A DNA stretch of 50,147 nt from Chiloscyllium plagiosum (lineage: Eukaryota), in assembly GCF_004010195.1 (NCBI RefSeq), contig NC_057752.1:14675289-14725435 (forward strand). The letters are read 5' to 3'. Both the position numbers and the translations under genes were made by a program. This document shows positions 583 to 43,678 of this stretch, piece by piece (position 1 is the stretch's first letter; each line of letters begins with the position of its first letter). The notes under the pieces were generated by a model that was given only the letters and a program-made list of their open reading frames with translations, was not told the origin of the DNA and ran no database searches.

Positions 583-1951
583 TGATGGATTCAAATGTGT
601 CTATTTTGCAGAAGTAACAAAGAGGATTGATGAGGGCAGCGAGGTGGAAGTGATCTATATGGACTTCAGTAAGACATTTGACAAGGTTCCTCATGGGATA
701 CTGGTGAGCGAGGTTAGATCACATGGAATACAGGGAGAACTAGCCAGTTGGATACAGAACTGGCTCAAAGGTACAAGATAGAGGGTGGTGGTGGAGGGTT
801 GTTTTTCAGACTAGAGGCCTGTGACCAGTGGAGTGCCACAAGGATCGGTGCTGGGTCCATTGTTCCTCACCATTTATATAAACGATTTGGATGTGATCAT
901 AGCAGATATAGTTAGTAAGTTTGCAAATGGCACCAAAATTGGAGTGGACAGTGAAAAAGGTTACCTCAGATTACAAAGGGATCATGATCAGATCGGCCAA
1001 TGGGCTGAGGAGTGGCAGATGGAGTTTCATTTAGATAAAGATAAGGTGCTAAATTTTAGCAAAGCAAATCAGGGCAGGACTTATACACTTAATGGTAAAT
1101 TCCTGGGGAATGGTTGCTGAACAAAGAGACCTTGTAGTGCAGGTTCATAGCTTCTTGAATGTAGTGTTGCAGGTAGATAGGATAGTGAAGGTGGTGTTTG
1201 GTATGCTTTCCTTTATTAGTCAGAGCATTGAGTATAGGAGTTGGGAGGTCATGTTGCGGCTGTACTAGACATTGGTTCGGCCACTGTTGGAAGATTGTGT
1301 GCAATTCTATCGGAAGGATGTTGTGAAACTTGAAAGGGTTCATAAAAGATTTACAAAGATGTTGTCAGGGTTGGAGGATTTGAGCTATAGGGAGAGGCGA
1401 ATAGGCTGGGGCTGTTTTCCCTGGAGCGTCAGAGGCTGAGGGGTGACCTTGTAGAGGTTTATGAAATCATGAGGGGCATGGATAGGATACAAAGTTAAAA
1501 ATCACACAACACCAGGTTATAGTCCAACAGGTTTAATTGGAAGCACACGAGCTTTCGGAGCGACGCTTCTTCATCAAGTGAAGGAGCGTCGCTCCGAAAG
1601 CTAGTGTGCTTCCAATTAAACCTGTTGGACTATAACCTGGTGTTGTGTGATTTTTAACTTAGTACACTCCAGTCCAACACCGGCATCTCCGAATCATAGA
1701 TAGGATAAATAGACAAGGACTTTTCCCTGGGGTGGGGGAGTCCAAAACTAGAGGGCATAGGTTGAGGGTGAGAGGGGAAAGTCATAAAAGAGACCTAAGG
1801 GGCAATGTTTTCACACAGAGGGTGGTGAGTGTATGGAATGAGCTGCCAGAGGATGTGGTGGAGGCTGGTACAATTACAGCATTTAAAAAGCATCTGAGTT
1901 GGCATATGAATAGGAAGGGTTTGGAGGGATATGGGACAAGTGCTAGCCAAG
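583..1951 (+). mobile_element. CR1 LINE ORF2 RT-to-3' fragment, degenerate
   Basis: YMDFSKTFDKVPH, GVPQGSVLGP, SKFANGTK (FADD motif) and FTQRVVSVWNELP motifs broken by stops and frameshifts; interrupted by the palindromic insert at 1490-1696. Confidence 0.92.
1490..1696. mobile_element. Palindromic non-autonomous Penelope-derived insert (family A) with hammerhead motif at the centre
   Basis: ~82-bp inverted arms 1492-1573 / 1579-1660; 13-bp target duplication CATGGATAGGATA (1477-1489) / CATAGATAGGATA (1695-1707); right arm matches the Penelope 3' end at 21630-21745. Confidence 0.85.
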
Positions 1952-1959
1952 TTGGGCCG

Positions 1960-4900
1960 AAGGATCTTGCTCGGTGGATCAGTGCTTGGAGCTGCGATGT
2001 TGTGGCCATTACAGAGACTTGGATACCACAGAGACAGGTATGTTTATTGGATGTTCCAGCATTGCAATGTTTCAAACAGAATAGGGAGGGAGGTAAAAGA
2101 GGTGGAGGAGTGGCATTGCTAATCAGGGATAGTATTACAATTGCAGGGTTTGTCCACTGAGTCATTATGGGTGGAAGTCAGAAACAGGAAAGGAGCAGTT
2201 ACTTTATTGGACGTTTCGTATAGACCCCCCAATAGCAGCAGAGAGACAGAGGAGCAGGTTGGAAGACAGATTTTGGAAAGGTGCAAAAGTAACAGAGTTG
2301 TTATCATGGGTGACTTCAACTTCCCTCATATTGATTGGATCATCCTTAGCACAAATAGATTGGATGGAGCAGATTTTGTCAGGTGTGTCCAAGAAGGAGT
2401 TCTGACCCAATATGTAGATAAACTAGAGGGGAGGCCATATAGGATTTGGTGCTTGATAATGAACCAGATCAGGTGTGAGATCTCTTGGTGGGAGATCATT
2501 TCGGTGATGGTGATCACACCTCGCTGACCTTTAACTGTATTCATGGAGAGGGATAGGAGCAGACAGTATGGGAAAGTATTTAATTGGGGGAGCGAAAATT
2601 ACAATGCTATTAGGCAGGAATTGTGGGGCTTAAATTGGGAACAGATATTCTCAGGGAAATGCACAACAGAAATGTGGAGGTTGTTCAGGGAGTACTTACT
2701 GCAAGTGCTGGCTAGGTTTGCCCCACTGAGAAAAGGAACATATTATTGGGTGAAGGAACCATGGATGACAAGGGATGTGGACCATCTAGTCAACAGGAAG
2801 AGGAAGCTTACTTACGGTTGAGGAAACAAGGAACACACAGGGCTCTAGAGGGTTACAAGGTAGCCAGGGAGGAACTGAAGAATGGATTTAGGAGAGCGAG
2901 AAGGGGGCTTTAGCGGGTAGGATGAAGGAAAACCCCAAGGCATTCTACACTTATGTGAGGAACAAGAGGATAGCTAAAGTGAGGGTAGGGCTGAATTATG
3001 ATAGTGGAGGGAACATGTGCCTGGAGTTGGAGGAGGTAGAGGTGGAGCTTAATGAATACACTGTTTCAGTGTTCACTACTGAGAGGGATCTTGTTGTTTG
3101 AGAGGACAGCATGAAATAGGCTGATATGCTCAAGCAGGTTGATGTTAAGGAGGATGTACTGGAAATTTTGAAAAACATGAGGATAGATAAGTCCCCTGGG
3201 CCAGATGTGATATTTCCCTAGGTTAGTACAGGAAGTGAGGGAAGAGATTGCTGCGCCTTGGTGATGATCCTTGCATCCTCACTGTCCACTGAAGTAGTAC
3301 CAGATGAATGGAGGGTGGCAAATATTATTCCCTTGTTCAAGAAAATGAGTAGGGATAACAGGAAATTGAACACCAGTCAGTCTTACATCAGTTTTTGGCA
3401 AACTATTGGAGACGATTCTGAGGGACAGGATTTATGATTATTTGGAAAAGCACAGCTTGATTAGAGATAGTCAACATGGCTTTGTGAGGGGATGGTCATG
3501 CCTCACAAGCCTTATTGAATTCTTTGAGGATGTGACAAAACACATTGATGAAGGTAGGGCAATGGTTGTGATGTACATGGATTTTATCAAGGCGTTTAAT
3601 AAGGACCCCAATAGTAGGCTCATTCAGAAAGTAAGGAGGCATGGGATGTAGGAAAATTTGGCTGTCTGGATACAGAATTGGCTAGCCCGTAGAAGACAGA
3701 GGGTGATGGTAGATATAAAGTATTCAGTGGTGTTCCGCAGAAATCTGTTCTGGGACCTCTGCTCTTGTGATTTCTATAAATGACTTGGATGAGGACGTGG
3801 AAGGGTGGGTTAGTAAGTTTGCCAATGACATGAATGTTAGTAGAATTGTGGATGGTATGGAGGGCTGTTGTAGGTTGCAACTGGACACTGACAGGATGCA
3901 GAGCTGGGCTGAGAAGTGGCAGATGGAGGTCAAACTGGAAAAGTGTGAAGTGATTCATTTTGGAAGGTAGAATTTAAATGCAGATTACAGGATTAAAGGC
4001 AGAATTCTTGGCAGTGTGAAGGAACGGTGGGATCGCAGGTTCCACATCCATAGATTAGATTAACTACTGTGTGGAAACAGGCTATTTCATCTGACAAGTC
4101 CACACTGACCCTCCGAAGAGTAACCCACACCGACCTATTCCCCTACCCTGTATTTACCCCTGACTAATGCACCTAACTCTATGGGCAATTTAGCACGGCC
4201 AGTTCACCTGACCTGCACATCTTTGGATTGTGGGAGGAAACCACAAAGACACAGGGAAGAATGTGCAAACTCCACACAGACAGTCACCCGAGGCAGGAAT
4301 TGATCCCAGGTCCCTGGCGCTGTGAGGCAACAGTGCTGACCACTGAGCCACTGTGCTGCCCTTGTTCCCTCAATGTTGCCATCTAAGTTGATAGGGTTTT
4401 TAAGAAGGCGAATGGAGTGTTGGCTTTCATTTGCAGGGGGATTGAGTTTAAGAGCCATGAGGATATGATGCTATAGAGCCCTGGTTAAACCACACTTGGA
4501 ATATTGTGTTCAGTTCTGGTCACCTCAATATGATAACTATGTGGAAGCTTTAGAGAGGGTGCAGATGAGATTTACCAAGATGCTTCCTGGACTGGAGGGC
4601 ATGTCTTATGAAGAAAGGTTGTGGGAGCTACAACTTTTCTCACTGGACCGAAGAAGGATGAAAGGTGACTTGATAGAGGTGTATATGACGATGAGAGGCA
4701 TAGATAGAGTGGATAGCCAGAGACTTTTTCCCATGGTAAAAATGGCTGTCTTGAGGGGTCATAATTTTAAAGTGACTGGAGGAAGGTTTGGGGGAGATGT
4801 CAGAAGTAGGTTCATTACGCAGAGAGTGGTGGGTGTGTGGTGGTAGTAGAGTTAGAGAAATTAGGGACATTTAAGCACCTCTTAGGTAGGTACATGAATG

Positions 4901-5008
4901 ATAGTACAATGTAGGGTATGTAGGTTAGTTTGATCTTGGAGTTCGATAAAAGATCAGCACAACTTTGAGGGCCGAAGGGCCTGTACTGTTCTTACTATGT
5001 TCTATGTT
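1960..5008 (+). mobile_element. CR1 LINE, nearly whole ORF2 (APE + RT) and 3' tail, degenerate
   Basis: DVVAITETW, GGGVALLIR, YRPPNS, MGDFNFP, SQHGFVRG, SKFANDM, EYCVQFWSP; ends in a CTATGTTCTATGTT tail; SINE inserted at 4051-4361. Confidence 0.93.
4051..4361 (-). mobile_element. HE1-like tRNA-derived SINE
   Basis: Reverse strand: GGGCAGCACAGTGGCTCAGTGG head, GGAGTTTGCACATTCT core, CCTGTTTCCACAC..AATCTAATCT tail; same as the other copies in the window. Confidence 0.88.
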
Positions 5009-5059
5009 AACATCCAGTCTTGCCCTTCCTTCAGCCACTGATGTTACTGATACAACATC

Positions 5060-5352
5060 AACCGCAAAGTTGGAAGTGAGGGAAGAGATTTCATCATGGA
5101 TGTTACTATTGAACTCAATCAGTAGCTGGAGGTCACCTCTTGTAATGGTGCTGAAACTGGATGAGTTGCAAAGATTTTGTAAAAATGTTTGCAAAATCAA
5201 TGTTGCAACAGTAGTAGACTCATATCCTATTTCACGATTGGAGGAATGCATTGGAAGAATTAGATTAGGCTTGTTTCCAAAATTGACTCACTTAAAGGAT
5301 ACTGAAAAGTCCTATTGACTGATAAAGCGAAAGAAATATCAGTTTCTGTAAC
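5060..5352 (+). mobile_element. Isolated Gypsy reverse-transcriptase fragment
   Basis: SSWRSPLVMVLKLDELQRFC..KINVATVVDSYPISRLEECI followed by SKID.LKGY*KV.LTDKAKEIS; parallels the RT at 17400-17640. Confidence 0.8.
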
Positions 5353-7956: not shown

Positions 7957-8512
7957 AAATCCCTACAGTGTGGAAACAGGCTTTTCAGTCCAACAAGTCT
8001 ACATCGACCCTCTGACGTGTAACCCACACAGACCCATTCCCCTACCCTATTATCCCATATTTTCCCCTGACTAATGCACCAAGCCCATACATCCCTGAAC
8101 ACTATGGGCAATTTAGCATGGCCAATTCACCTAACCTGCACAGCATTGGATTGTGGGAGGAAACGGGAGCACCCGGAGGAAACCCACGTGGGGAGAATGT
8201 GCAAACTCCACACATCCTGGATCAGTGGTGCTGGAAGAGCACAGCAATTCAGGCAGCATCCAACGAGCAGCAAAGTCGATGTTTTGGGCAAAAGCCCTTC
8301 ATCAGGATGAAGGGCTTTTGCCCGAAACGTTGATTTTGCTGCTCGTCGGATGCTGCCTGAATTGCTGTGCTCTTCCAGCACCACTGATCCAGAATCTGGT
8401 TTCCAGCATCTGCAGTCATTGTTTTTACCCCTTTTCAAACTCCACACAGACAGTCGCCTGAGGCTGGAATCGAACCCAGGTCCCTAGCGCTGTGAGGCAG
8501 CACTGCTAACCA
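7957..8512 (-). mobile_element. HE1-like SINE interrupted by a palindromic insert
   Basis: SINE tail at 7957-8000 and head at 8450-8512; split at CAAACTCCACACA. Confidence 0.88.
8215..8435. mobile_element. Palindromic non-autonomous Penelope-derived insert (family B) with hammerhead motif at the centre
   Basis: 87-bp inverted arms 8217-8303 / 8306-8392; perfect 13-bp TSD CAAACTCCACACA at 8202-8214 and 8436-8448; centre GCCCTTCATC-AG-GATGAAGGGCTTTTGCCCGAAACGT. Confidence 0.88.
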
Positions 8513-11489: not shown

Positions 11490-11640
11490 ACTCAGGATGT
11501 AGGTTTGCTTGCTGAGCTGGACGGTTCATTTTCAGATGTTTTGTCACCATACTAGGTAACATATCAGTGAGTGTCCGGATGAAACACTGGTGGCATCGCC
11601 CACTTTCTATTTATGTGTTTAGGTTTCCTGTGGTGATGTC
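11490..11640 (-). mobile_element. Penelope-like terminal fragment (family D) with decayed hammerhead
   Basis: Reverse strand CACTGAT-ATGTTACC TAGTAT GGTGAC AAAACATC = decayed CTGATGA-stem II-GAAACGTC. Confidence 0.55.
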
Positions 11641-13487
11641 GGTTTGGTGGCTTCAGTCCATGATTTGGACAGATTTAGAGAGATCCAGTCTGGGGTTTGG
11701 ACAGATTTGAACAGATCTGGGTTAGGAAAGATTCCAGAAGATTTGAACGCTTGCTGATTACTGTCCTAGATCTTTAAATAAAATGTAGGTGAGACAATAT
11801 GTTTAATTTTGGTCACTTGTGGTTGGTTTAATTAAAGTGAGTGAAATGGCTCTTAAAATTGCTAAAGAGGTTCTGGGTTTGAAGATGATTCCCAAATTTG
11901 CCAAGAATGTTTAGAAGGAAAGAAAAAGACCTTACTTTTGGAATTAGCAAAGAGGTTAAAATCGGGAATAACCCAGGAAAAATGTAAAGCTGAAATTGTA
12001 AGGGAGTTACTCCAACACTAAAGTGAGTCAGAGAAACAGACAAATGCAGTAGAGTTAGTAAACCTGAAATTACAACTGAGGAAAGTGGAGTTAGAATATA
12101 AACAAAAAGAGAGAGGAAAAAGAGAGAGAGAGAAGGTTCTTAGCTGAGCAAAGAGAGAGAGAGAGAGAGAATTAGTGCTTCAGAAATTGCGACTTAGGAA
12201 ATTCAAATTAACAAATGGAGATAAAGAAAGAAGGCAGTGATATATACACACACAAATATGTTATAGTTCAGACTAAACTGGTAGGCAGAGCGAGCAAGGT
12301 ATTTGCAGTGCTGTCAGATGAGGGGTGAAGAGATTATGAAGAGGTCAAACAGGCTATTTTCAGTGCTTACAAATTGGTACCAGAAACGTAAAGACAGCGG
12401 TTCAGAAACATAAAGAGGGAACCAGGTCAGATTTACATTGAGTTCAAAAGAATTAAACATAGCCATTTTGATAGATGGGTGTAGGACTTAAAAATAGATA
12501 AGACCTATGAGCCTCTGAGAGATTATTCTCCTGGAAGAGTATCAAAACTCACTTCCAAAGATGATAAGAATTCACGTAGATGAACAGAAAGTTCAACAAG
12601 TGAGAAGAGCAGCAGAGATGGCAGATGAATATACACTGGTGCATAAGGCAAACTTTAGCTTCTGGCAAGAATTTCATCCTGTGAGGGGTATAAATTGGGA
12701 GAAGGAGAGATCGTATACTATGTAACAAAAAATAGAGAACACTGGTAAGAGTTTACCACAGGTTAAAAAAGAAGCCCAAGAGGGTGGAAAGGAGATGAAA
12801 GGTCTCAACTGTTTCCACTGTGGTAAAGTGGTAAGGTTGTTAAAGTGCTGGTTGTTAAAGAAGGGCACTGTGGGTAAAGATGTGCTCAAGGAAGCTCAGC
12901 TAGTGGCAATAGTGAAAGTAGGAAAAGAAACCCCAAAAAATGTTGAGGAGCTGCAGGAGAGTGCACAGGCTAGGCAGGGGCTAGGTATGGAGATAGTGCT
13001 TGATCTCTATAAAAAAATTCGCCTCTGTGGGTTAAAGTTACGCAGAGCGGGGTCAGAAGGGCAAGAAGTTACAATTTTGAGAGATACAGGATCTAACCAG
13101 ACTCTAATAGTAATAGATAAACATATTTGCACTCTTTCTGACCTGTTAGCCGAGAGAATGGTAATTTGTGGGATAGATGAACAGAAATTTAGTGTTCCCT
13201 TACATAAGATCAGCTTGGAGTGCCAACTCAAGACTGGAGAATTAACAATGGGTGTGATTGATAGAGTGTCAGTTCCAGAAATCCAGTTTGCTCTTGGGAA
13301 TGATTTAGCAGGATCCAAGGTGGGAGTGACACCCCTTTTGTGGAGAAGCCCAAGGAAGACCAAGAAACTGAGAAGTTAAAACAGTAATATCCTGGTATTT
13401 TCCCAGACTGTGTGGTAACCACATCCCACTACCATAAGTCATAACACAAAGTGAAAAGTAAGAAGAAAGATGAAGGAGTTGAGGTTC

Positions 13488-13763
13488 AGCACAGTGGTTA
13501 GCACTGCTGCCTCACAGCACCAGAGACCCGGGGTTCAATTCCCGCCTCAGGCGACTGACTGTGTGGAGTTTGCACATTCTCCCCGTGTCCCACTGTATCC
13601 CCGTGTCTCTGGTTTCCTCCCACAGTCCAAAAAATGTGCAGGTTAGGTGAATTGGCCATGCCCGTAGAGTTAGGCGAAGGGGTAAATGTAGGGGTATGGG
13701 TGGGTTGCGCTTCGGCGGGTCGGTGTGGACTTGTTGGGCTGAAGGGCCTGTTTCCACACTAAG
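13488..13763 (+). mobile_element. HE1-like SINE in Gypsy pol (copy 1)
   Basis: GCACAGTGGTTAGCACTGCTGCCTCACAG head (A-box-like), GGTTCAATTCC B-box-like motif, conserved tail. Confidence 0.9.
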
Positions 13764-14234
13764 NNNNNNNNNNNNNNNNNNNNNNNNNNNNNNNNNNNNN
13801 NNNNNNNNNNNNNNNNNNNNNNNNNNNNNNNNNNNNNNNNNNNNNNNNNNNNNNNNNNNNNNNNNNNNNNNNNNNNNNNNNNNNNNNNNNNNNNNNNNNN
13901 NNNNNNNNNNNNNNNNNNNNNNNNNNNNNNNNNNNNNNNNNNNNNNNNNNNNNNNNNNNNNNNNNNNNNNNNNNNNNNNNNNNNNNNNNNNNNNNNNNNN
14001 NNNNNNNNNNNNNNNNNNNNNNNNNNNNNNNNNNNNNNNNNNNNNNNNNNNNNNNNNNNNNNNNNNNNNNNNNNNNNNNNNNNNNNNNNNNNNNNNNNNN
14101 NNNNNNNNNNNNNNNNNNNNNNNNNNNNNNNNNNNNNNNNNNNNNNNNNNNNNNNNNNNNNNNNNNNNNNNNNNNNNNNNNNNNNNNNNNNNNNNNNNNN
14201 NNNNNNNNNNNNNNNNNNNNNNNNNNNNNNNNNN
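13764..14234. other. Assembly gap
   Basis: Run of N flanked by near-identical 1.5-kb copies. Confidence 0.99.
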
Positions 14235-15468
14235 TGGGTAATGCTAGTTCAGACTAAACTGGTAGGCAGAGCGAGCAAGGTATTTGCAGTGCTGTCAGAT
14301 GAGGGGTGAAGAGATTATGAAGAGGTCAAACAGGCTATTTTCAGTGCTTACAAATTGGTACCAGAAACGTAAAGACAGCGGTTCAGAAACATAAAGAGGG
14401 AACCAGGTCAGATTTACATTGAGTTCAAAAGAATTAAACATAGCCATTTTGATAGATGGGTGTAGGACTTAAAAATAGATAAGACCTATGAGCCTCTGAG
14501 AGATTATTCTCCTGGAAGAGTATCAAAACTCACTTCCAAAGATGATAAGAATTCACGTAGATGAACAGAAAGTTCAACAAGTGAGAAGAGCAGCAGAGAT
14601 GGCAGATGAATATACACTGGTGCATAAATGCAAACTTTAGCTTCTGGCAAGAATTTCATCCTGTGAGGGGTATAAATTGGGAGAAGGAGAGATCGTATAC
14701 TATGTAACAAAGAATAGAGAACACTGGTAAGAGTTTACCACAGGTTAAAAAAGAAGCCCAAGAGGGTGGAAAGGAGATGAAAGGTCTCAACTGTTTCCAC
14801 TGTGGTAAAGTGGTAAGGTTGTTAAAGTGCTGGTTGTTAAAGAAGGGCACTGTGGGTAAAGATGTGCTCAAGGAAGCTCAGCTAGTGGCAATAGTGAAAG
14901 TAGGAAAAGAAACCCCAAAAAATGTTGAGGAGCTGCAGGAGAGTGCACAGGCTAGGCAGGGGCTAGGTATGGAGATAGTGCTTGATCTCTATAAAAAAAT
15001 TCGCCTCTGTGGGTTAAAGTTACGCAGAGCGGGGTCAGAAGGGCAAGAAGTTACAATTTTGAGAGATACAGGATCTAACCAGTCTCTAATAGTAATAGAT
15101 AAATGTATTTGCACTCTTTCTGACCTGTTAGCCGAGAGAGTGGTAATTTGTGGGATAGATGAACAGAAATTTAGTGTTCCCTTACATAAGATCAGCTTGG
15201 AGTGCCAACTCAAGACTGGAGAATTAACAATGGGTGTGATTGATAGAGTGTCAGTTCCAGAAATCCAGTTTGCTCTTGGGAATGATTTAGCAGGATCCAA
15301 GGTGGGAGTGACACCCCTTTTGTGGAGAAGCCCAAGGAAGACCAAGAAACTGAGAAGTTAAAACAGTAATATCCTGGTATTTTCCCAGACTGTGTGGTAA
15401 CCACATCCCACTACCATAAGTCATAACACAAAGTGAAAAGTAAGAAGAAAGATGAAGGAGTTGAGGTT

Positions 15469-15759
15469 CAGCACAGTGGTTAGCACTGCTGCCTCACAGC
15501 ACCAGAGACCCGGGGTTCAATTCCCGCCTCAGGCGACTGACTGTGTGGAGTTTGCACATTCTCCCCGTGTCCCACTGTATCCCCGTGTCTCTGGTTTCCT
15601 CCCACAGTCCAAAAAATGTGCAGGTTAGGTGAATTGGCCATGCCCGTAGAGTTAGGCGAAGGGGTAAATGTAGGGGTATGGGTGGGTTGCGCTTCGGCGG
15701 GTCGGTGTGGACTTGTTGGGCTGAAGGGCCTGTTTCCACACTAAGTAATCTAATCTAAA
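15469..15759 (+). mobile_element. HE1-like SINE in Gypsy pol (copy 2)
   Basis: Matches 13488-13763, same insertion site; AATCT tail. Confidence 0.9.
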
Positions 15760-18705
15760 GTAGTGGACACTCTGTTTGACGTAATGGTGCAGGAAAAACC
15801 TGAACAGGCACTTTAAGGGTCAGGCAAAAGTGCTTAGTCCTGAAAGACTAATGGATTTACAACAGAAAGATGAGACAATAAAAAATCGATATGTTGATGC
15901 TTACTCAGAATAGGAGGGAGAGAATATTCCTGAAGGTTATTATCTCAAAGATAGAATCCTCCGGCGAAAATGGAGACCATGGCAGGTTAGTGCAGAGGAG
16001 AAACGGGCCGAAGTGCATCGGTTTCTGTGGCTGTTAGCATAAAGACAGGAAGTGTTACAGGTAGCACATGAACTACCTGTAGGAGGTCACCTAGTGGTAC
16101 GAAAGACTCATGTTAAGGTACAAAAGCATTTCTATTGGTCTGGAATGCACAGGGATGTGGTTAATTTCTACCATATGTGACATACATGCCAAATGGTAGG
16201 TAAGCTACGGACAGTTATAAAACCAGCACTTTCCCCACATTGGAAGAACCTTTCACGCGGATAATGATTGATTGTGTTGGCCCTTTCCCGGGAACTAAAA
16301 GTGGAAACCAGTACTTGCTACCAGATGTCTGGAGGCAATTCCATGATGGAGTATTAAGGCAAAAAGGGTGAGCGAGGACTTGGTAGCTTTCTTCACACAG
16401 TATGGGCTATTCAGAGAGATTCAGTTGGACCAAGGGTCTAATTTTACTGCTAGGATGTTGAAGGAAGTCATGGGTAGCTTAGGTATATGGCACTTTAAAT
16501 CAAGTGTGTATCATCCTGACCAGGGGGCTTTGGAAAGGTTGTATCAGACCTTGAAGACCATGTTGAGAGCATGCTGTCAGGATTACCTGAATGATTGGGA
16601 CAAACGTATCCCATCTATATTGTTTGCCATTGGAGATACCGCAAACAAATCTACTCAGTTTACTCCCTTCGAGTTATGAACATGAAGTGAGAGGCCCTTT
16701 GAAATTAATTAAAGAAAAATTGACAGGACCAAAGTCGGAGATCTCACACTTGGATTAAATATCGGAGATGAGGGAGAGATTAAATAGAGAAGGTGAGTTA
16801 GCCAAACAGCACCTAAAGAGGGCACAGCATAGAATGAAGCAGGTGGCAGATGACAACTCTGAGACTCGGACATTTTCCCGAGGGGATGATGTATTAGTAC
16901 TGTTACCAGTGATAGGAGAGTCCTTCAAAGCCAGGTTTAGTGGTCCCTATCAAACTGAGAAAAGGTTGAACTATCTAGTAAAGATGCCAGATCGAAAAAA
17001 AGGTATCGAGTGTGTCATGAGAACATGTTGAATACTAGAGAGAAAGAACTGGAGAAACAGGGGGTAATTACTGCCACACAAAGTGAGGAATCAAATTCAG
17101 ATATTGTGGATATTGATGTGCCTCAAAATATGTTAAAAAACAAAGAAGTCCTTGAGGAGTGGGATAGGTTCGTAAACTATCTATCTCAGGAGCACAGAAC
17201 ACAGTTGAAAGGTTTGTTCTGCAGTATAAGGGCTTTTGTAGGAATCAAATGGGGAGGACTAATGTTACTGTATGTGAAGTAGACGGATGGAATACTGTTC
17301 TGATAACACAGCACCCCTATTGGCTTAATCCTTTCAAAGCCAGACAGGTCCAGAAGAAGGTGGAGGCCATGCTTAACGAGGTTATCATTGAACCAAGCCA
17401 GAGCGAGGGGAGTTGCCGATCGTCTTAGTTCCCAAAACGGACAGGACTGAATGATTCTGCGTGGATTACTGGAAGGTCAACATCGTTACAAAATCGGACT
17501 CATATCCAATACAGAGTTTGGAAGACTGTATCGAGAAAGTTGGACAAGGCAGTTACATCACCTAGTTGGACTTACTGTGTGGTTACCAGCAGGTACCTTT
17601 ATCACAGATGACGAAAGGAATCTCTTTGGCGTTTGTAACCCCAAATGGGCTACATGAATTTAAAATGATGCCCTTTGGAATGAAGAAAGCACCTGCCACA
17701 TTCCAAAGACTCATAAACAGCACTGTGGCTGGATTAACTAACTGTGCAGTCTATTTGGACGATGTAGTGATCTTTTGTTAGTCCTGTAAAAATCTCACGC
17801 TACAGCTAGCAAAGCTCTTTGAATGACTATGAGAAGCAAAATTGGTGATAAACTTAAATAAAACTGAATTTGCAAAAGCAGAGGTGATTCTCTTGGGACA
17901 TAACATCGGTCATGGAATGCAAAGATGAAGGCCATTGAGAAATTTCCACGACCAAACTCAAAGAAAGAGGTGTTTCGATGTTGGGACTAAGCGGATTCTA
18001 TGGGACGTTTGTTCCAAACTTCAGCAGTGAAGTGGCACCATTAACTGATTTGTTGAAGAAGAACATAAAATTTTGGTAGACAGAACAATGCCTGGAGGCA
18101 TTCAACTATTTAAAAGCAGCATTAACCACTGCACCAGTTTTAGTTACACCAAATGTTTGGAAAACTTTCAAAGTTGAAGCTAGTGACATTGCATTTGGAG
18201 CGGTACTGCTCCAGGAAGATGATGATGGGATTGAACTGCCAGTTGGTTACTTTGTGAAGAAAATCAGCATCCACCAGAAGAAATACTCCACGATCGAAAA
18301 AGAACTATTGAGTTTGGTGCTGGCCTCACAACATTTTAATGTGAATGTCATGAACAATATGTCAGAGACGGTTGTGTACATTTTCACAATCTTCTTACAT
18401 TCTTGGAATGCTTTAAAGACAAGAATATGAAACTACTCCATTGGAGTCTTATGTCACAGACTTTTAATTTACAAATCATACATGTTGTGGGTCATAACAA
18501 TGTAATTGCAGGTGCGTTATTGTGGATTTAACTGATAAAGTATAGATCAGATTGGTATCTACTCAGTTATATATATGTGTGGGAAGAAGTTAATATGAAG
18601 TTAGATTAAAGTAATATGTATGTTATGATAATGTGGTTAAGGAATAGAGGGAAAAATGAAGCCATCTTTTCATTATGATGGTTCATTTTTTCTTAAGAGG
18701 GCTAG

Positions 18706-20400: not shown

Positions 20401-21592
20401 AAGAAAGGATCAAGACAAAAGATGGAAAATTATAGGCCAATTAGCCTCACCTCAGTTGTTGGTAAAATTCTAGAATCCATCATTAAGGATGAGGTTTCTA
20501 AATTCTTAGAAGAGCAGGGTTGGATTAGAACAAGTCAACATGGATTTAGTAAGGGGAGGTCGTGCCTGACAAACCTGTTGGAATTCTTTGAAGAGGTGAC
20601 AAGTAGGTTAGACCAGGGAAACCCAGTGGATGTGGTCTATCTAGACTTCCAAAAGGCCTTTCATCAGGTACCACACAGGAGGCTGCTGAGCAAGGTGAGG
20701 GCCCATGGTGTTCGAGGTGAGCTACTGGTATGGATTGAGGATTGGCTGTCTGACAGAAGGCAGAGAGTTGGGATAAAAGGTTCTTTTTCGGAATGGCAGC
20801 CGGTGACAAGCGGTGTCCCGCAGGGTTCAGTGTTGGGGCCGNNNNNNNNNNNNNNNNNNNNNNNNNNNNNNNNNNNNNNNNNNNNNNNNNNNNNNNNNNN
20901 NNNNNNNNNNNNNNNNNNNNNNNNNNNNNNNNNNNNNNNNNNNNNNNNNNNNNNNNNNNNNNNNNNNNNNNNNNNNNNNNNNNNNNNNNNNNNNNNNNNN
21001 NNNNNNNNNNNNNNNNNNNNNNNNNNNNNNNNNNNNNNNNNNNNNNNNNNNNNNNNNNNNNNNNNNNNNNNNNNNNNNNNNNNNNNNNNNNNNNNNNNNN
21101 NNNNNNNNNNNNNNNNNNNNNNNNNNNNNNNNNNNNNNNNNNNNNNNNNNNNNNNNNNNNNNNNNNNNNNNNNNNNNNNNNNNNNNNNNNNNNNNNNNNN
21201 NNNNNNNNNNNNNNNNNNNNNNNNNNNNNNNNNNNNNNNNNNNNNNNNNNNNNNNNNNNNNNNNNNNNNNNNNNNNNNNNNNNNNNNNNNNNNNNNNNNN
21301 NNNNNNNNNNNNNNNNNNNNNNNNNNNNNNNNNNNNNNNNNNNNNNNNNNNNNNNNNNNNNNNNNNNNNNNNNNNNNNNNNNNNNNNNNNNNNNNNNNNN
21401 NNNNNNNNNNNNNNNNNNNNTCTTCAAGGCAGAGATTGATAAATTCTTGATGTCACAAGGAATTAAGGGCTACGGGGAGAATGCGGGTAAGTGGAGTTGA
21501 AATGCTCATCAGCCATGATTGAATGGTGGAGTGGACTCGATGGGCCGAATGGCCTTACTTCCGCTCCTATGTCTTATGGTCTTATGGTCTTA
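20401..21592 (+). mobile_element. Relatively young 5'-truncated CR1 (spans the gap 20842-21420)
   Basis: Uninterrupted RT frame NYRPISLTS..SQHGF..YLDFQKAF..GVPQGSVLGP; tail CCTATGTCTTATGGTCTTATGGTCTT. Confidence 0.9.
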
Positions 21593-21623
21593 AATTCTGT
21601 GTCTTATGGTCCTGCTCCACAAA

Positions 21624-23749: not shown

Positions 23750-23925
23750 AGGCGAAACTGAGGACTGCAGATGCTGAAGATTACAGTCAAGGTTAGAGTG
23801 GTGCTGGAAAAGCACAGCAGGTTAGGCAGCATCCTGATGAAGGGCCCCTGCCTAAAACGTTGATTTTCCTGCTCTTTAGATGCTGCCTGACCTGCTGTGC
23901 TTTTCCAGCACAACTCTAATCTTGA
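23750..23925. mobile_element. Family-B Penelope-derived hairpin insert with hammerhead in the loop
   Basis: ~46-bp inverted arms (~23788-23833 / ~23879-23925) around CCTGATGAAGGGCCCCTGCCTAAAACGTT; 12-bp TSD CCAGTATTTATT / CCAGCGTTTATT. Confidence 0.8.
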
Positions 23926-28678: not shown

Positions 28679-29607
28679 AGGATGTGGTCCAGAGTCGGAC
28701 TTGTCCTAGTGAGGATTTGGTGCAATGTAGGATTTGGCCCACTATAGGAAGTGGCCCAATGTTGGACCTGGCCCAGAGTAGGACCTGGCCCAGTGTCAGA
28801 TAGGTCCACTGTAGGATGTGGCACAGTGTAAGGTGTGGCACAGTGTAAGGTGTGGCTCAGTGTTGGATCTGGCCAATAGAGGGTGTAGCTTAGTATCAGA
28901 TGTAGCTCAGAGTAGAACCTGGCCCACTGAAGGATGTGGGCCAGTTCAGAATATGTCTCAGTGTAGGACCTGGTCCAGAGCACTACCTGGCCCAGTATAG
29001 GATGTGGCCCAGAGAAAGGCATGGCCTGGAGTAGAACAAGTCTCAATATAGGATGTAGCCCAGAGCAGGACATGTCCCAATGCAGGATGTGGCCTGGAGG
29101 ATGGTATGCAGAGTAAGATGGGTTCACTGGAGGACCTGGCCCAGTGCAGCACTTGGCCCAGTGTTGGATTTGGTCCATTAAATGGTGTCACTTGGAGTAG
29201 GACCTGGCCCAATAGAGGATGTGGCCCAGAGTAAGACCTGGCCCAAGAGGATCTAGTCCAGATTAGGACTTGTTCCAGTGCAGTATGTGGCCCCTATGCG
29301 GTTCAGTGTCAGATATAGCCCAGAATAGCACCTGGCCCAGTGTAGGACCTAGCCCAGAAGACAATGTGGCCCAGAGGAGGATTTGGTCGAGTGCATGTTC
29401 CCGGGTAGAATGTGGCCCCAAAAGGGATGTGACCCAGAGTAGGTTGAGACCTGTACAGAGTGTGGCCCATTGTTAGGATGTGATCCAATCAATACTGTGG
29501 GTCAGTGTCGGATGTTGTGGCCAAGTGTAGGGTGTGGCCCAGAGTAAGACCTGGCCCAGTGAAGGACATGGCCCAGAGTAAGGTGTGGCTCAGAGTAGGA
29601 TGTGGCA
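28679..29607 (-). repeat. 17-bp minisatellite array (plus strand TGTAGGATGTGGCCCAG / AGTAGGACCTGGCCCAG)
   Basis: About 50 degenerate 17-bp units; reverse orientation relative to 44179-48583. Confidence 0.92.
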
Positions 29608-29612
29608 AGTGA

Positions 29613-29692
29613 TTTCAAATAAACCTGTTGGACTATAACCTGATGTCATGTGACTTTTGACCTTGTCCACCCAAGTCCAACAAAGGCACTTC
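29613..29692 (+). mobile_element. Family-A Penelope terminal fragment
   Basis: CAAATAAACCTGTTGGACTATAACCTG..AGTCCAACA matches 1613-1680. Confidence 0.8.
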
Positions 29693-30061
29693 ATATCCCT
29701 GCAGGAGCTGCTGTTCTCTGCAGTGTATACGAGGACTGCTGTTCTCTACGGTATACACAGAATGAGTTTCCATGCACATTTCCCCTTCATTATCAAGATC
29801 ACCCATTTCTAACTCAGTATCGTCATCCAACTCTACCCTACTCATCACATCTACTGCTAAAACTGTCTTTTGTCACCTCTCGGGAATAAACAATGCTAAC
29901 ACATGCCACCCAGATCTCCTACAAACCTCCCTGTAACCTTGAGCTCATCCAAGACTCTGCTCCCCATTGACTTACTTGCATAAAGTCTTGTTCACCCAAC
30001 AACTCCTGTGCTTGCTGATACACAAAGGCTCCTGCTTCAAATGGACCGACATTTTAAAGTT

Positions 30062-30312
30062 AAACAGAAATTGCTCGAAGAACTCAACTGGTCTGGCAGC
30101 AGCTGGGGAGAGAAACCAGGGAAAAGTTTTAAGGTCATTGCTGCTTTTTTAGAATTAATTTTGATTCTCCACTGTTCTTTATTTTAGTTTACCAATATTC
30201 TGAAGCTGCATTCCTGCTTTCTGATGAAGGGTGACTCTACCGAAACTTTGACTCTACTTTCTCTCCAGAGATGCTGCCACACCTGCTGAGTTTCTCCAGC
30301 AATTTCTATTTG
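30062..30312. mobile_element. Family-C Penelope-derived inverted-repeat element
   Basis: AAACAGAAATTGCT..TCTGGCAGCA versus GATGCTGCCA..CCAGCAATTTCT inverted ends with an internal hammerhead. Confidence 0.7.
30218..30252 (+). ncRNA. Hammerhead ribozyme motif, family C
   Basis: CTGATGA-AG-GGT gactct ACC-GAAA-CT-TT; both core boxes present, stem III palindrome altered (ACTT instead of ACGT). Confidence 0.6.
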
Positions 30313-31036
30313 GGTTCCTGTTTTCTTTGCTGGTTATGATCATCTCTATCTCTGATCTCTTCTGGCCCAGTGTAGGGTGTGACATTTAGAAACAGTCAAC
30401 AGAAGTCAGAATAAAAGACATAACCTCATAAGAAACGCGCAGTGTAAAATTTAAAGAAAGCGAGACAATTGCAGAGAGGTGATCTGATAAAGGTGAGGAA
30501 TGAATGAGCATAGATTCAGATCCACAGGAAAGGAGCTATACTAACTCCAGAACCATGGAACATCTCAGAGACAGAGCAGCACAGAACTAAAATCTCAAAA
30601 TTGTTCAACTGACTCGCCTCTGAAACAACTTGATGTTTTAATTTGAAAATCTCCTGCTGACATTTGCAACTGGGAAGATATCAGAAGCACTGCACTCAGA
30701 GAAAAAAATCGTACAGTTGAGGAAATATCTGGGGATGAGGTGATAGCTCTGCGCAGCCCCCTTGAACATCCTTTTAAATAAGTTTCAAAATTCGATCACT
30801 GTGAACCAAGGATAAACAATCAGAAGAAACAAATACTTCTCTTGGTTTGACTTTGCTGGGTGTAAAACCACCCTTTCAAAACCCTTGGGAAAGGAGTTTT
30901 AAAAATCTATCACCCTGAGTTCAGGATAGAAATTCACATTATTCCCACCTCCTGCCCAGGATGACCATGCGTGCTCTCGACTGCAAATTACCCCTTAGCA
31001 TTGTCAGCAGTCTCTCACCTTGACAATGATGACTAT

Positions 31037-32856: not shown

Positions 32857-35800
32857 CACAGAGTCATAGAATCCTAAAGCTTGGAGACAGGCCTTTCAGC
32901 ACAAACCTGTCCTGGCTGACCAAAATGTCCATCCACAATAATCCCATTTCCCGACACTTGGTCCATGCCCTTCGAAACCTTTCCTATCCATATATTTGTC
33001 CAAATGCCTTTTAAATGTTCTTAATGTAACTGCCTCAACCACTTCCACTGGCAGCTCATTCCATATGCATAACACACTCTGTGTAAAAATGTTGTCCCTG
33101 AGGTTCCCTTTTATTCTTTCCCGTCTAATCTTAAACTGATGCCCTCTAGTCCTCTACTCCCCAGTTCTGGGTAAAAGACTGCATGCATTCACCCTATCTA
33201 TGCCTCTCATGATCTTTTACACTTCTAGAAGATCCCGCCTAAGTCTCCTATGGTCAAAAGAAAAATGTCCGAGCTTGTCAGAACTCTCCCTATAACTCAG
33301 ACCCTTGAGTCCTGGCAACATTCTTGCAAATTTCTTCTGCACTCTTTCCAGTTTAATATAGTAAGTCACCAAAATTGAACACAATACTCCAAGTGCAGCC
33401 TCACAAATGTCCTGTATAACTGCAACATAACTTACAGGGTAGCTAGAAAAGAACTCAAAAATGGACCAAGGAGAGCTAGGAGGGGGCATGAAAAAACCTT
33501 GGCGGAAAGGATTAGGGAAAACTCCAAGGCGTTCTGCACTTACACGAGGAATAAGAGAATGATCAGAGACAGGGTAGTGCTGATCAGAGATAGTGGAGGG
33601 AACTTCTTCCTGGAATTTGAAGAGGTGGGGAAGGCCCTAAGTGGATTTTTGCCTCAGTATTCATGAGAGATAGGGACCTTGTTGATAGTGAGAGTACCAT
33701 GGACGAGGTTAATAGGCTTAAACAGAGTGATATTAAGGAATGTGCTGGAAATTCTGGGAAACATCAAGATAGATAAGTCCCCAGGGCCGGACCAGATATA
33801 TCCAAGGTTACTACGGGAAGCGAGGAATGAGATTGCTGTGCCTCTGGCGATGTTCTTTGCTTTCTCTATCTCCATGGGAGAAATATCAGTTGATTGGAGA
33901 GAGGTGAATATTGGCCCTCTGTTCAAGAGAGGGACTAGGGAAATCCCTGGGAATTACAGACCAGTCAGTCTTACATCTGTGGTAAGTAAGGTACTGGAAA
34001 GGATTGTGAGAGATAGGATTGATGACTATTTGGAAACTCGTAGTTTGATTAACGATAGTCAGCATGGTTCTGTGAGGGGCAGGTCATGCCTCACAGGCCT
34101 TATTGAGTTCTTTGACGATGCGACGAGACAAGTTGACAAAGGTCGAGTAGTGGATGTGGTGTATATGGATTTCAGTAAGGCATTTGATAAGGTTCCCCAT
34201 GGTACACACATTCAGAAAGTTAGGAGATATGGGATACAGGGAAATTTGGCTGTCTTAATACAGAATTGGCTGTCCGAAGAAGACAGTGAATGGTAGTGGA
34301 TAGAACGTATTCCGCCTGGAGGTCGGTGTCCAATGGTGTCCCACAGGGATCTGCTCTTGGGCCTCTGCTGTTTGTAGTTTTTATAAATGACTTGGATGAG
34401 GAAGTGGAAGGGTGGGTTAGTAAGTTTGCCGATGACACAAAGGTCGGTGGTGTTGTAGATAGTGTCGAGGGCTGTTACAGGCTACAAGACATTGACAGGA
34501 TGCAGAGCTGGGCTGAGAAGTGGCAGATGGAGTTCAACCTGGATAAACGCGAACTGATTCATTTTGGAAGGTCGAATTTGAGTGCTGAATACAGCATTAA
34601 AGACAGGATTCTTGACAGTGTGGAGGAACAACTGGATGTTGGGGTCCACGTACATAGATCCCTCAAAGTTGCCAACCAAGTTAATAGGGTTGTTAAGAAG
34701 GCGGATGATGTTTTGGCTTTCATTAACAGGGGGATTGAGTTTAAGAGCCGTGAGGTTTTGCTGCAGCTCTGTAAAACCCTGGTTCGACCATGCTTGGAAT
34801 ATTGTGTTCAGTTCTGATCACTTCATTATAAAAAGGATGTGGAAGCTTTAGAGAGGGTGCAGAGGAGATCTACCAGGATGCTGCCTATACTGGAGGGCTT
34901 GTCTTATGAAGAAAGGTTGAGTGAGCTCGAGCTTTTCTCACTGGACAGAAGGAGGAAGAAAGGTGAATTGATAGAGGTATACAAGGTAATAACAGGCATT
35001 GAAAGAGTAGATAGCCAGAGACTTCCCCAGCGCAGAAATGGGTATCATGGAGGGGCATAATATTAAGGTGATTGGAGGAAGGTATAGGTATGATGTCAGA
35101 GGTGGGTTCTTTATGCAGAGAGCAGTGGTGCATGGAATGCACTGCCAGTGGTAGTAGTATAGTCAGAGACATTAGGAACATGTAATTGACTGTTGGACAA
35201 GCACATGGATGGCAGTAAATTGGGGAGGGTGTAGGTTTGGTTGACCTTAGATGAAGATAAATGCTCGGCACAACATCGTGGGCCAAAGGGCCTGTACTGC
35301 TCTATGCCCTATGTTCTGTTCTAACTCCCAACTTCTCTACTCAATGCCCTGACTGATGAAGGCCAGTATGCCAACAGCTTTCTTCACTGCCCTGTCTACC
35401 TGTGACTCCACTTTCAGAGAACCATGCACCTGAACTCCAAGGTCCCTCTATTCCACCACATCCTTAAGGCCCTACCATTGACCAAGAAACTCCTACCTTG
35501 ATTTGACTTTCCAAAATGCATGTCCTCATACTTAGCAATATTAAACTCCATTTGACATTTCTCAGCCCACTTCCCCAGCTGATCAAGGTCCTGCTGCAGT
35601 TTCTGATAACCTTTCTCACTGTCCACAATACTCTCTATTTTAGTGTCATCAGCAAACTTAATAATCACGCCTTGTACATTCTCACCCAAATCATTGACAT
35701 CGATAACAAAGGTAACAGTTCCAGCACTGACCCGTGAGGCACTCCACTAGTCACAGGCCTCCAGTCCAACAAGCATCCTTCTACTATTACCCTCTGCTTC

Positions 35801-37232: not shown

Positions 37233-37234
37233 CT

Positions 37235-38944: not shown

Positions 38945-38979
38945 AATATTTCACACCAAGGTGAGTTCCATGCATATGG

Positions 38980-39293
38980 AGTGACACGGTGGCTCAGTGG
39001 TTAGCACTGCTGCCTCACAGCTCCAGGGACCTGGGTTTGATTCCCACTGGTCTGTGTGGAGTTTGCACATTCTCCCCATGTCTGCGTGGGTTTCCTCCGG
39101 GTGCTCCGGTTTCCTCCCACAATCCACAGATGTGCAGGTCAGGGGAATTGGCCATGCTAAATTACCCATAGTGTTAGTCAGGGGTAAATATAGGGTAGGG
39201 GAATGAGTTTGGGTGGGTTTCCTTTTGGAGGGGCGGTGTGGACTTGTTGGGCCGAAGGGCCTGTTTCCACACTGTAGAGAATCTAATCTAATC
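38980..39293 (+). mobile_element. HE1-like SINE
   Basis: Full head-to-(AATCT)n tail. Confidence 0.9.
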
Positions 39294-39335
39294 ATATTTC
39301 CTCTTCAACAGCAAGATTGCCGATGTCTAACTCAT

Positions 39336-39430
39336 TTGGAGGTGGTTGTGAAGGAGCAGTGCTCCGAAAGCTAGTGCTTCCAACTAAACCTGTTGGACTA
39401 TCACCTGGTGTTGTGTGATTTTTAACTATT
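39336..39430 (+). mobile_element. Family-A Penelope terminal insert with partial hammerhead
   Basis: TGAAGGAGCAGTGCTCCGAAAGCTAGTG..; 10-bp TSD TCTAACTCAT at 39326-39335 and 39431-39440. Confidence 0.82.
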
Positions 39431-40935
39431 TCTAACTCATCTAACTCCACCCTAGCTTCAGCTCATCTGCTACTTCAACTCTTATCTATTCCACTATAAC
39501 CATGCTGGCAAGCACTGTGCCGATTTCAAACATTCAACCTCGCTGTGATCTTGAGCTCATCCAAAACTCAGCTTCTTATTTGTTTACTTGCACCAAGTCT
39601 TGCTCACCCATCAACTCCCTGTGCATACTGATCAGGAAAGGCTCCTGGTTAAAACAGGCCAAAATTTTAAAATAGAAACAGGAATTGCTGGAGAAACTCA
39701 GCCAGTCTGGCAGCATCTGAGGAGAGAAACCAGAGTTATGTTTCAAGACCAGTGCCCTATTTTAGAACAGCATCCACTGTTCTTTGTTTTATTTTACTAA
39801 GATTATAAAATCTCATTCCTGATGTCTGAGGAAGGTCATTATACCCGAAACAATGACTCTGCTCTCTTGCCACAGATGCTGCCAGTCCTGTTGAGCTTCT
39901 CCAGCAATTTCTGTTTAATGTTCCTGTTTCCTTTGCTGGTTATGATCATCTGTATCTCTGATCTGTTCCAGGCAATTAGTCTTCTTCCCAGAATGTAGTC
40001 AAAATTGTGTGCAGCAGCAAGATGGGCTGCAGTATAAACAACATTTAGAAACCATCAAAAGAAGGAAGAATAAAACACAAAACCTCATGAGAAAGCATAC
40101 AGTGAAGGGTTCAAAGAAAGTAAGACAATTGCGGAGAGGTGATCAGATAAAGATAAAACAGAAGAACGAATGAAGAATGATTCGGATCCACAGTAAAGGA
40201 GCCACAGCAACTCCAGAACCATGGCACCTCTCAGAGAAAGAGCAACACACAGGGTGGCACAGTGCCTCAGTGGTTACTGCTGCCTCACAGGGGCCTGGGT
40301 TCGATTACCATCTGTTTGGAGTTTGCACATTCTCCCCGTGTCTGCGTGGGTTTCCTCTGTGTGCTCTGGTTTCCTCCCACAATCCAAAGATGTGCAGGCC
40401 AGGTGAATTACCTATAGTGTTCGGCATTAGTCAGGGGTAAATATAGGATAGGGGAATGGGTCTGGGTGGGTTGCTCTTTGGAGGGTTGGAGTGGACTTGT
40501 TGGGCCGAAGGGCAAAATGACTCACCTCTGAAATAACTTCATGTTTCAGTTTTAAAATCTCCTGCTGAAGCTTGCAACAGGAAAGATATCAGAAGCACTG
40601 CTGTCAGAGAATAAATCTTACAATTGAGGAAATATCAACGTGATAGCTGTGTGCAGCCCCTTGAACATCCTGTAAAAGAGGTTACAAAATTCAATTAATG
40701 TGAACCCGGGATAAACTTTCAGAATAAATAAATATTTTGCTTGGTTTAACTTTGCTGTGCGTAAAACTACCCTTTCAAACACCTTAAGAAAGATGTTTTA
40801 AAAATCTTATCAATGTCAGTTCAGGATAGAAACTCGCATCAACCCCTCCTTCTGGCCCAGGCTGACCATGCATGCTCTCTACTGCACATTGCCCCTCAGC
40901 ATTGTTGGCAATCTCTCAAGTCAAGGATGATGTCT
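39431..40935 (+). repeat. Local segmental duplication, copy 2 (carries an extra SINE)
   Basis: Collinear with 29808-31035; hammerhead remnant CTGAGGAAGG..CCCGAAAC at 39826-39851. Confidence 0.88.
40251..40513 (+). mobile_element. HE1-like SINE, present only in duplication copy 2
   Basis: Absent from the corresponding position (~30580-30610) of copy 1. Confidence 0.85.
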
Positions 40936-41152
40936 ACTCAGGTTCATGAGTTTCTGCCCTGGGTCTTCATGTGACTGAACAGAGCTGTTGTACATAGTGG
41001 CAGGTCATTCCTTTTGAGAGCTTCTGTCCTACTGCTCTGCCTCATCAATAAGACACTGGGTATGAAAGGCAAAGAGAGCTTGATGGATGAGTTGACTCCA
41101 TTCTGAAGAAAGGGAAGTAAGCTCCTCCTCGTCATTCTAATATTAATATTTG

Positions 41153-42191: not shown

Positions 42192-43320
42192 CATGGTGGT
42201 TCATTTCCCAAACCATTGCAGTTTCAGCTAACTAGTCAAAGATATCCCTCACTCCCTGCTCAACTGTAGCTTCTAAAACTCCTTGAGAGATTTTACTGTA
42301 AGGTAATTATTCAAGCTAGATGAATCGAATGGTCTCAGTTTGTGTTCTAAGTTGCAACATTCTGCATGTAAGTTTATGGTCTTGGTGCTTATTGCTTTTG
42401 AGAAAATTGTGAAGTCTTAGAGAAAACAGAAGACTTAAAAGAAAGAAGTGACAAGGAGGGTGTAGTGCAGAATTGATATAACGGAGACAAGAACGTAGCA
42501 GTTGTTAAAAAATTGGGCATATTCGCATTTGACAAATGAAGGAAACTCAAGGAGACCTGACAGCTTTCTATGTCACAACTTAACAATTAAGAAATTTTCT
42601 GCAAATCAGTTCAATGGTCCCTGTTTAGAGCATTCATTGAAACAATCATTTTGCTTTTCAGGATTTGCAGTTTGTCGATATCTCTCTCTTCAGGTATTTT
42701 CCACTTCCTTGTAGGAAACTGGTTCACAAATTATGGTTAAAAGCAATAGCTTTCAGCAGTTGGTGAGGGAAAATAAACGGCTTTCTTTAGGCCTCATTTC
42801 ACTTATACTACATAGAAAAGAAGACTACCTCAATTTCCAAGGGTATGATGGCTTCTGGTTATAATCCTTCACAGTCAAAAGCTGTTCAGCTACCTGGGGG
42901 CCAATCACAGATGTTGGCAGGCAGAGAGCCTTTGTCATTGAAAACTGGTCACCACTCCACATCAGTCAGCTGTGCTTGTTGCACTTCATACACTCCCCAT
43001 GGTCCCAGTTTGTCTGCAATAAACATCATCCCTCAGCCAATATCCCAACTGGGCCTCAACTGGAGGACTGTGTGCACTTCTGGTCACCCTGCTATGAGAA
43101 GGATATTATTAAATTGGAGAGGGTTCAGAAAAGATTTCCCAGGATGTTCTCAGTCTCTGGCTTGCTGCAGTGCTCCAGCTCAGCGCAAGCTGGAAGAACA
43201 TCACCTTATTTTCTGAACCCTGCAGCCTTCTGGACCCAAAATTCAATTCAACAACGTGAGGGATTGAGTTCTCCCATCTTCTTATCTCAACCACCACACA
43301 CCAGGCCTTGTTATCACATA

Positions 43321-43356
43321 TTCCTGATGAAGGGCTTTTGCCTGAAACGTCGATTT
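43321..43356 (+). ncRNA. Minimal type-I hammerhead ribozyme motif, best preserved copy
   Basis: TTC-CTGATGA-A-GGGC TTTT GCCT-GAAA-CG-TC-GATT: both core boxes, stem II, palindromic ACGT stem III, predicted cleavage after UC. Confidence 0.75.
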
Positions 43357-43417
43357 TCGTGCTCCTCGGATGCCGCCTGACCTGCTGTGCTTTTCCAGCA
43401 CCACTCTCATCTAGACT
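43321..43417 (+). mobile_element. 97-bp family-B insert beginning at a hammerhead ribozyme
   Basis: Perfect 14-bp TSD CTTGTTATCACATA at 43307-43320 and 43418-43431. Confidence 0.88.
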
Positions 43418-43678
43418 CTTGTTATCACATAGTCTGCTATTGCACGTTGTTAAACACTAACACTCCCCAGTAATTGCTATTCAACATCCCAGCTGGATTG
43501 TTATCCACTTCTATCATCGCTCCAAATGTTCGTCTCTCTCTTTGGGCTCTATCCCCATCTATCGTTTACTCCTTAACCCCTTTCTTCTGCAAATAAACTG
43601 ACATTATCCTTATCCTAGCCAGCACCAGTTCGAGGAATGTTCACTCAAAATGTGAACTCTGATCTCTCTCCACAGATG

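Follow-up and report, generated by a model that had tools for sequence, protein, structure and literature searches.

The window analysed here is a stretch of 50,147 nucleotides from Chiloscyllium plagiosum (NCBI RefSeq assembly GCF_004010195.1, contig NC_057752.1, positions 14,675,289 to 14,725,435 of the forward strand). A sequence-only reading had named ten hammerhead ribozyme sites in it, in at least four families derived from Penelope retroelements. All ten proved to be real copies: each is a fragment of the 3' end, or pseudo-long terminal repeat (pLTR), of a Penelope-like element (PLE), and they fall into four family or subfamily groups. We consider it highly probable (about 0.87) that the motifs are minimal type-I hammerheads carried in the pLTRs of several Penelope-like families (A, B and likely C Neptune-type, D Poseidon-type), present here as short, 5'-truncated insertions, most of them mutated, which probably derive from uncleaved element RNA and are probably inert at their present sites. 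The motif copies are identifiable with element 3' ends, they stop at two fixed 3' positions, target-site duplications flank insertions, and the ribozyme stems covary.

Hammerhead copies in the window

By homology to family references, the window holds 15 pLTR copies (16 with the remnant at 43601-43678), four more than had been named, and the family homology spans 80-130 nt around each motif. The expectation that the core boxes are kept holds for three of the ten named sites (43324, 21627 and 30221), where the boxes and UH are intact, and fails for the other seven, which are truncated or mutated. A complete minimal hammerhead is found only at 43324, the other nine being truncated or damaged; the change of GAAA to AAAA recurs in the 8278-8305 minus arm, at 23834 and at 11535-11567. 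In 200 dinucleotide shuffles of the window, 0.005 complete motifs are expected against the one observed, and 0.66 motifs with both core boxes and UH against three. Both family C sites (30221 and 39826) sit in one old duplicated segment, 29924-31035 versus 39536-40936, whose halves are 72-80% alike, and they are therefore one insertion, not two. The copies are listed in Table 1.

Table 1. Penelope-like pLTR copies in the window and their hammerhead motifs
Feature	Position	Strand	Details
Family A head-to-head pair	1488-1698		minus arm 1580-1488 with short end, motif at 1549-1577, C3 mutated to U; plus arm 1579-1698 with long tail, begins past CUGA, which it lacks; flanking 9-nt direct repeat
Family B1 head-to-head pair within SINE	8211-8434		minus arm short, G12 to A; plus arm (8306) with long tail, its 5' start inside CUGA; ~13-nt target-site duplication
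Family D1 (Poseidon-type) pLTR fragment	11492-11640	-	hammerhead 11567-11535: G8 deleted, G12 to A, G16.2 to A
Family A pLTR fragment with tail	21591-21740	+	core boxes intact at 21627, stem II damaged
Family B head-to-head pair	23750-23915		plus arm hammerhead 23834, G12 to A; minus arm starts 3' of ribozyme
Family A pLTR fragment without hammerhead core	29605-29697	+	absent from the sites named earlier
Old family C inverted pair	30062-30324		plus arm hammerhead 30221, boxes kept, stem III palindrome and stem II damaged; paralogue of 39670-39929
Family A short copy	39349-39427	+	starts past CUGA; ~12-nt inverted piece before it; flanked by 10-12-nt direct repeat
Old family C inverted pair	39670-39929		plus arm hammerhead 39826, U16.1 lost
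Family B1 solo pLTR insertion	43319-43417	+	begins ~4 nt before C3; core 43324-43351, complete, C11.1 to U giving a wobble pair; predicted cut after 43351
Target-site duplication of the 43319-43417 insertion	43307-43318 / 43418-43429		12 nt
Worn family C remnant	43601-43678	+	site 43631; interrupted by assembly (N) gap

Ribozyme structure and covariation

The CUGANGA, GAAA and UH boxes are present in all family consensuses. Stem I formed no part of any search pattern; across seven family consensuses, 20 of 21 stem I positions are paired, a score matched by 2 of 5040 arm permutations. The proposal that the stems differ between families and still pair is borne out by covariation: in 28 real copies, six of the seven pairs change on both sides, with every slid control far lower, in a set that excludes family A (shifted by one column by the aligner) and in which relatedness among the sequences inflates such scores. 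Stem II, with G10.1-C11.1 and an extra nucleotide after A9, is paired in 98% of cells, and three of its four pairs change on both sides, a result that leans toward structure because the copies were picked by stem II patterns. The conservation of the core and stems across families, with compensatory changes, points to selection for activity, or at least for structure.

Stem III is a palindrome without a loop, AGCU in family A and ACGU in B, C and D, and all 32 of the core matches sampled from the genome (described below) are palindromic, in line with the minimal type-I architecture first suggested for the window. The cleavage triplet is GUU in the C and D2 consensuses and CUA in A; GUU is a poorer NUH site than GUC or CUA. 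Judged by their sequence, the motifs belong to the minimal type-I hammerhead (min-HHR) of Cervera & De la Pena 2014 (PMC4209133; this and the other papers are cited for their accessible parts).

Abundance in the genome

A general core pattern finds 166,279 intact-core matches across the whole genome, as compared with 230 in the control. With exact patterns the matches number 21,180 for B1, 17,799 for A, 355 for C and 13,550 for D, and none of these patterns matches the reversed control; among the first 100 matches listed for the general pattern, the most frequent member is a B subfamily that has A at N7. We also drew a sample of 100 unselected 10-kb stretches (959,519 non-N bases). It contains 32 matches to the general core pattern, 24 of them with all three helices, at a density of 33 per Mb, somewhat under the genome mean of 47 per Mb. 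These stretches also contain 263 pLTR copies (274 per Mb), of which 156 reach C3 and 76 retain both boxes and UH, and the idea of a very large, mostly decayed population is thus upheld. With 15 copies in 47,587 non-N bases, or 315 per Mb against 274, the window is typical of the genome.

By extrapolation, the genome carries roughly 0.9-1 million pLTR fragments and some 125,000 structurally complete motifs (24/32 of the sampled matches applied to 166,279). The census is slightly inflated by uncollapsed duplicates, the segment 11440-11640 being also found at 100% on an unplaced contig. At E-values up to 10, Rfam returned no hammerhead family in the window, only weak microRNA matches on the palindromes; it misses these hammerheads and reports their palindromes as microRNA-like hairpins. 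Our literature search on hammerheads or named PLE clades in sharks found no census, with supplementary species lists and most subscription journals outside its reach. Further minor hammerhead families that are absent from the window were seen at L052:864-904 and L258:9511-9547 in other loci, with stem II GAG..CTC and GGGT..ACC and other stem I arms.

Elements that carry the motifs

Because a tblastn search of the window found no Penelope coding remnant, the carrier elements were sought elsewhere in the genome. The reverse transcriptase (RT) stretch adjoining the family B motif has 28,979 candidates, and the motif lies downstream of the RT, in sense, at 23 of 46 other distinct RT places, many of the remaining places ending in N gaps; in locus L178, family B motifs stand on both sides of the frame. 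Pfam RVT_1 matches all five of the family B frames examined, two of them above the cut-off. A CX2-5CxxC linker between RT and endonuclease is seen in L021, and the frame appears to start ~170 nt downstream of the ribozyme (L007). The family A motif lies 296-1468 nt downstream of the end of a GIY-YIG frame in 20 of 30 loci, and in L293 the order is RT, CX4CxxC linker, CCHH GIY-YIG endonuclease and family A motif. Family D motifs lie downstream of a CCHH endonuclease without the Cys linker in all four loci inspected (L113, L121, L123 and L125, chosen for tblastn matches), and family C resembles B downstream of the motif.

The Penelope origin that had been assigned to the motifs therefore stands, by RT and GIY-YIG frames upstream of A and B and by the endonuclease upstream of D. 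The traits of endonuclease-bearing (EN+) Penelope-like elements are found together here: a single frame with RT followed by GIY-YIG (CCHH) upstream of the pLTR in A and B, and in D as regards the endonuclease, along with a 30-40-bp tail, an inverted 5'-truncated copy and a target-site duplication. The 3' ends of A, B1, B2, C and D1 are bimodal, at two positions 35-40 nt apart, as expected of a PLE-type tail. On the domain features given in the accessible text of Craig et al. 2021 (PMC8557442), families A and B class as Neptune-type and D as Poseidon-type, with Nematis, which has a reduced linker, as an alternative for A and B; family C is likely Neptune-type.

Geometry of the insertions

We mapped 5' ends with an anchor in the region 3' of the cut site, so that the ribozyme was not required, and dropped copies at sample edges or N gaps. 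Among 133 unpaired copies of families A, B and C, the 5' ends pile up at -10 to +9 of C3, where 61 of 102 copies at risk end (0.046 per nt); the hazard beside this hotspot is 0.008 per nt at +10 to +39 (26/128) and 0.003 per nt at -100 to -11 (10/41). Restricting the set to copies with at least 90% similarity leaves the pile-up in place (21 of 35 at risk). Around the predicted cut site the distribution of genomic 5' ends is flat, with no excess at the site. We considered hidden subfamily untranslated regions (UTRs) as the source of the pile-up and rejected them, upstream sequence being shared by only 2 of 61 plain hotspot copies; in about five old copies the flanks are rich in pyrimidines and may represent diverged UTR.

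Many copies occur as head-to-head pairs, and 47 of 49 such pairs combine one long-tail arm with one short arm (binomial p about 1e-12). A direct repeat of 9-18 nt frames 37 of the 49, as compared with 5% in the control. Long and short arms paired within a target-site duplication, together with 5' ends at the ribozyme edge, suggest twin priming on uncleaved RNA.

RNA reads

A search of sequencing runs listed no RNA run that contains the sequence. Two raw single-cell runs, labelled with the same species as the best-matching DNA runs, were mapped to a B1 copy. From the first, a polyA run, 1,179 reads aligned, on one strand or the other; most were 90-95% alike and most came from other copies. The second gave none. 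These reads reflect passive transcription of many copies, not element expression. In the first run, read starts and ends do not pile up at the cut site and depth is continuous across it, which, with this library, says little about cleavage; in 171 reads the match breaks off 4 nt ahead of C3, at the same boundary as in the genomic copies.

Origin of the copies

The following route would account for the geometry. The element RT may initiate at two internal positions, 60-100 nt beyond the ribozyme, and read through it, and in families A, B and C it would stop preferentially at the ribozyme 5' edge, either because the RNA ends there or because it meets a block. If both nicked target strands prime, one per start site, the product would be a head-to-head palindrome whose arms differ in length, one long and the other short, each pair representing one insertion event; the in vitro behaviour of an anole element allows priming at both nicks (PMC11167929, accessible parts). 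Selection would have acted on the ribozyme while it was part of the source elements, and its cleavage, to judge from relatives that have been tested, would require a dimer or the aid of a protein. Taken to its full extent, the proposal is tentative, and we rate it at a little less than even odds: each palindrome would be a twin-priming product drawing on both RT start sites, and in Neptune-type families both cDNAs would end at the hammerhead 5' edge, where the RNA begins or where the RT is halted by a folded (dimeric) ribozyme. The hammerhead would then serve to mark the head of the template and not to cut it, and no richer single source of min-HHRs than this genome would have been described. 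The counted geometry yields testable predictions on the RNA start, the RT stop and the twin-priming origin of the inverted copies. Our literature search on twin priming in PLEs found nothing on point, most subscription journals being outside its reach.

Several results weigh against the assignment of the motifs to Penelope-like pLTRs or against the proposed route of insertion. In addition to the coding remnants missing from the window, an endonuclease lies upstream of family C in only 2 of 30 loci, with no RT seen; Pfam has no match on the family A frames and scores the endonuclease below its cut-off; and a PDB sequence search with a family B frame matched no solved RT. The hammerhead is not the minimum-energy form of the segment 43319-43356, folded alone or as a pair, and alone the motif folds into another hairpin, although for a weak 4-bp dimer helix such folding is uninformative. 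Family D lacks a 5' hotspot: of 19 unpaired copies at risk, 1 ends there, one D reference reaching only 55 nt upstream. Target-site duplications flank only 14 of 61 single hotspot copies. Finally, in only 4 of 46 pairs does each arm have the other as its best match, so that a single shared template for both arms is not established.

The head-to-head pairs might also stem from one cDNA that snaps back on itself at the ribozyme 5' edge, the one-sided tail being cut by the endonuclease during resolution, rather than from two priming events. We find this somewhat unlikely. Both arms belong to one subfamily in 45 of 49 pairs, as snap-back would have it, several junctions form perfect hairpins and show short inverted microhomology (8294-8312; loci L219 and L228), and the accessible text of PMC8557442 ascribes the tail to endonuclease-mediated resolution; many junctions, however, carry filler bases or arms with different 5' ends, both arms end at the same two positions as single copies, and in vitro work in the parts of PMC11167929 available shows two RT start sites bounding the tail, with both target strands extended. 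The model of Cervera, in which cleavage by the ribozymes in vivo sets the RNA ends and re-ligation then yields circles that serve as the source of copies, agrees with the conservation of core and stems, and a circle would likewise yield copies that span the cut site. It is nonetheless unlikely in our judgement, given the lack of an excess of genomic 5' ends at the cut site, the (weak) evidence of reads running across it and the report, in the same parts of PMC11167929, that ribozyme mutants still insert in vitro and that RNA ends are not found at the site.

Two other explanations concern what the copies are. A separate non-autonomous class (retrozyme, short interspersed element (SINE) or miniature inverted-repeat transposable element (MITE)-like) amplifying as a 100-260-nt unit would fit the fact that most copies are short with a sharp 5' edge, some having target-site duplications, and pLTR-derived retrozymes have been described, also in one chondrichthyan (10.64898/2026.07.22.740005, accessible parts). 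We consider it improbable, as the copies are dispersed rather than tandem, their 5' edges and palindrome junctions vary from copy to copy, and long copies continue into coding 3' ends. Chance matches to a short motif might be suspected from the degeneracy of most window copies and the absence of a hammerhead match in Rfam; against this stand the genome-wide count and its control, 39 matches versus 0-1 in shuffles and the family homology around each motif, and chance is almost certainly not the explanation.

Other features of the window

A broken LTR retroelement at 12700-18430 (+) has protease-like, integrase (rve, weak) and RNase H-like pieces, with the integrase preceding the RNase H. The segments 12264-13760 and 14245-15742 are nearly 100% identical and 1,982 nt apart with an N gap between them, and are probably an assembly duplication. 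Fragments of a CR1/L2-like long interspersed element (LINE), with esterase-like ORF1, zinc knuckle and RT, lie at 258-590 (-), 21810-22193 (-), 33667-34817 and 46472-47568. A SINE of ~300 nt, which we take to resemble the elasmobranch HE1 SINE, has at least 10 copies in the window (for example 4051-4360, 38985-39297 and 47933-48258), one of them split by the 8211-8434 insertion. A degenerate 17-nt minisatellite forms three blocks (28679-29611, 44171-45570 and 47706-48590), the first inverted relative to the others. An open frame of 122 codons at 4950-5318 (+) has no Pfam match and is not obviously from a repeat.

Comparison with known systems

Min-HHRs in the pLTRs of metazoan Penelope-like elements were described, motif and host elements together, in 2014 (PMC4209133), and those reported here are new members of that published class. 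As far as the accessible parts of that paper go, they agree in being type I, with CUGANGA plus an extra nucleotide, a stem II opened by G10.1-C11.1, GAAA, a palindromic 15.2/16.2 without loop III and a short stem I, and in occurring as many families per genome, mostly as solo copies or opposite-strand pairs. They differ in that stem II has 4-6 bp and in number: the 166,279 core matches here exceed the vertebrate numbers in print by a factor of about 18-40, those being some 4,000 for coelacanth and 9,000 for Xenopus, obtained with another descriptor; the same parts of the paper do not mention sharks. Min-HHR monomers were found not to cleave and dimers to cleave at low levels, and the ribozyme maps to the Penelope intron end (PMC4209133). 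For Penelope of D. virilis, the start of transcription lies within the pLTR, some 120 nt ahead of the end of the intron (PMC2377424, accessible text).

The non-long terminal repeat retrozymes of a 2026 bioRxiv preprint (10.64898/2026.07.22.740005) are likewise non-coding, hammerhead-bearing and pLTR-derived, and are known, in the portion available, also from one chondrichthyan genome, where only tandems were counted. Those are head-to-tail tandems, unlike the solo or head-to-head copies of the window, the genome at large not having been searched for tandems.

The elements behind the motifs are close to the Neptune and Penelope/Poseidon units of Craig et al. 2021 (PMC8557442), with RT followed by GIY-YIG with CCHH and a CX2-5CxxC linker present in A and B and absent in D, and with 5' truncation, an adjacent inverted copy, a 30-40-bp tail at one end and a variable target-site duplication. 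The accessible text of that work treats the role of the PLE hammerhead as an open question and gives the one-sided tail in words; here it is counted, in 47 of 49 pairs, and the truncations cluster at the ribozyme 5' edge. A counterpart studied in vitro is the Anolis Poseidon element PAc (Frangieh et al. 2024, PMC11167929), whose ribozyme, in the parts of the paper available, cleaves only with the element's protein and is dispensable for insertion in vitro. On the route proposed here, the two systems would share two RT start sites that bound the tail, extension of both target strands, and uncleaved RNA as the template with no RNA ends at the cut site. The evidence there was obtained in vitro and here comes from genomic copies, and the PAc frame starts inside the ribozyme, unlike that of family B, which appears to begin well downstream of it.

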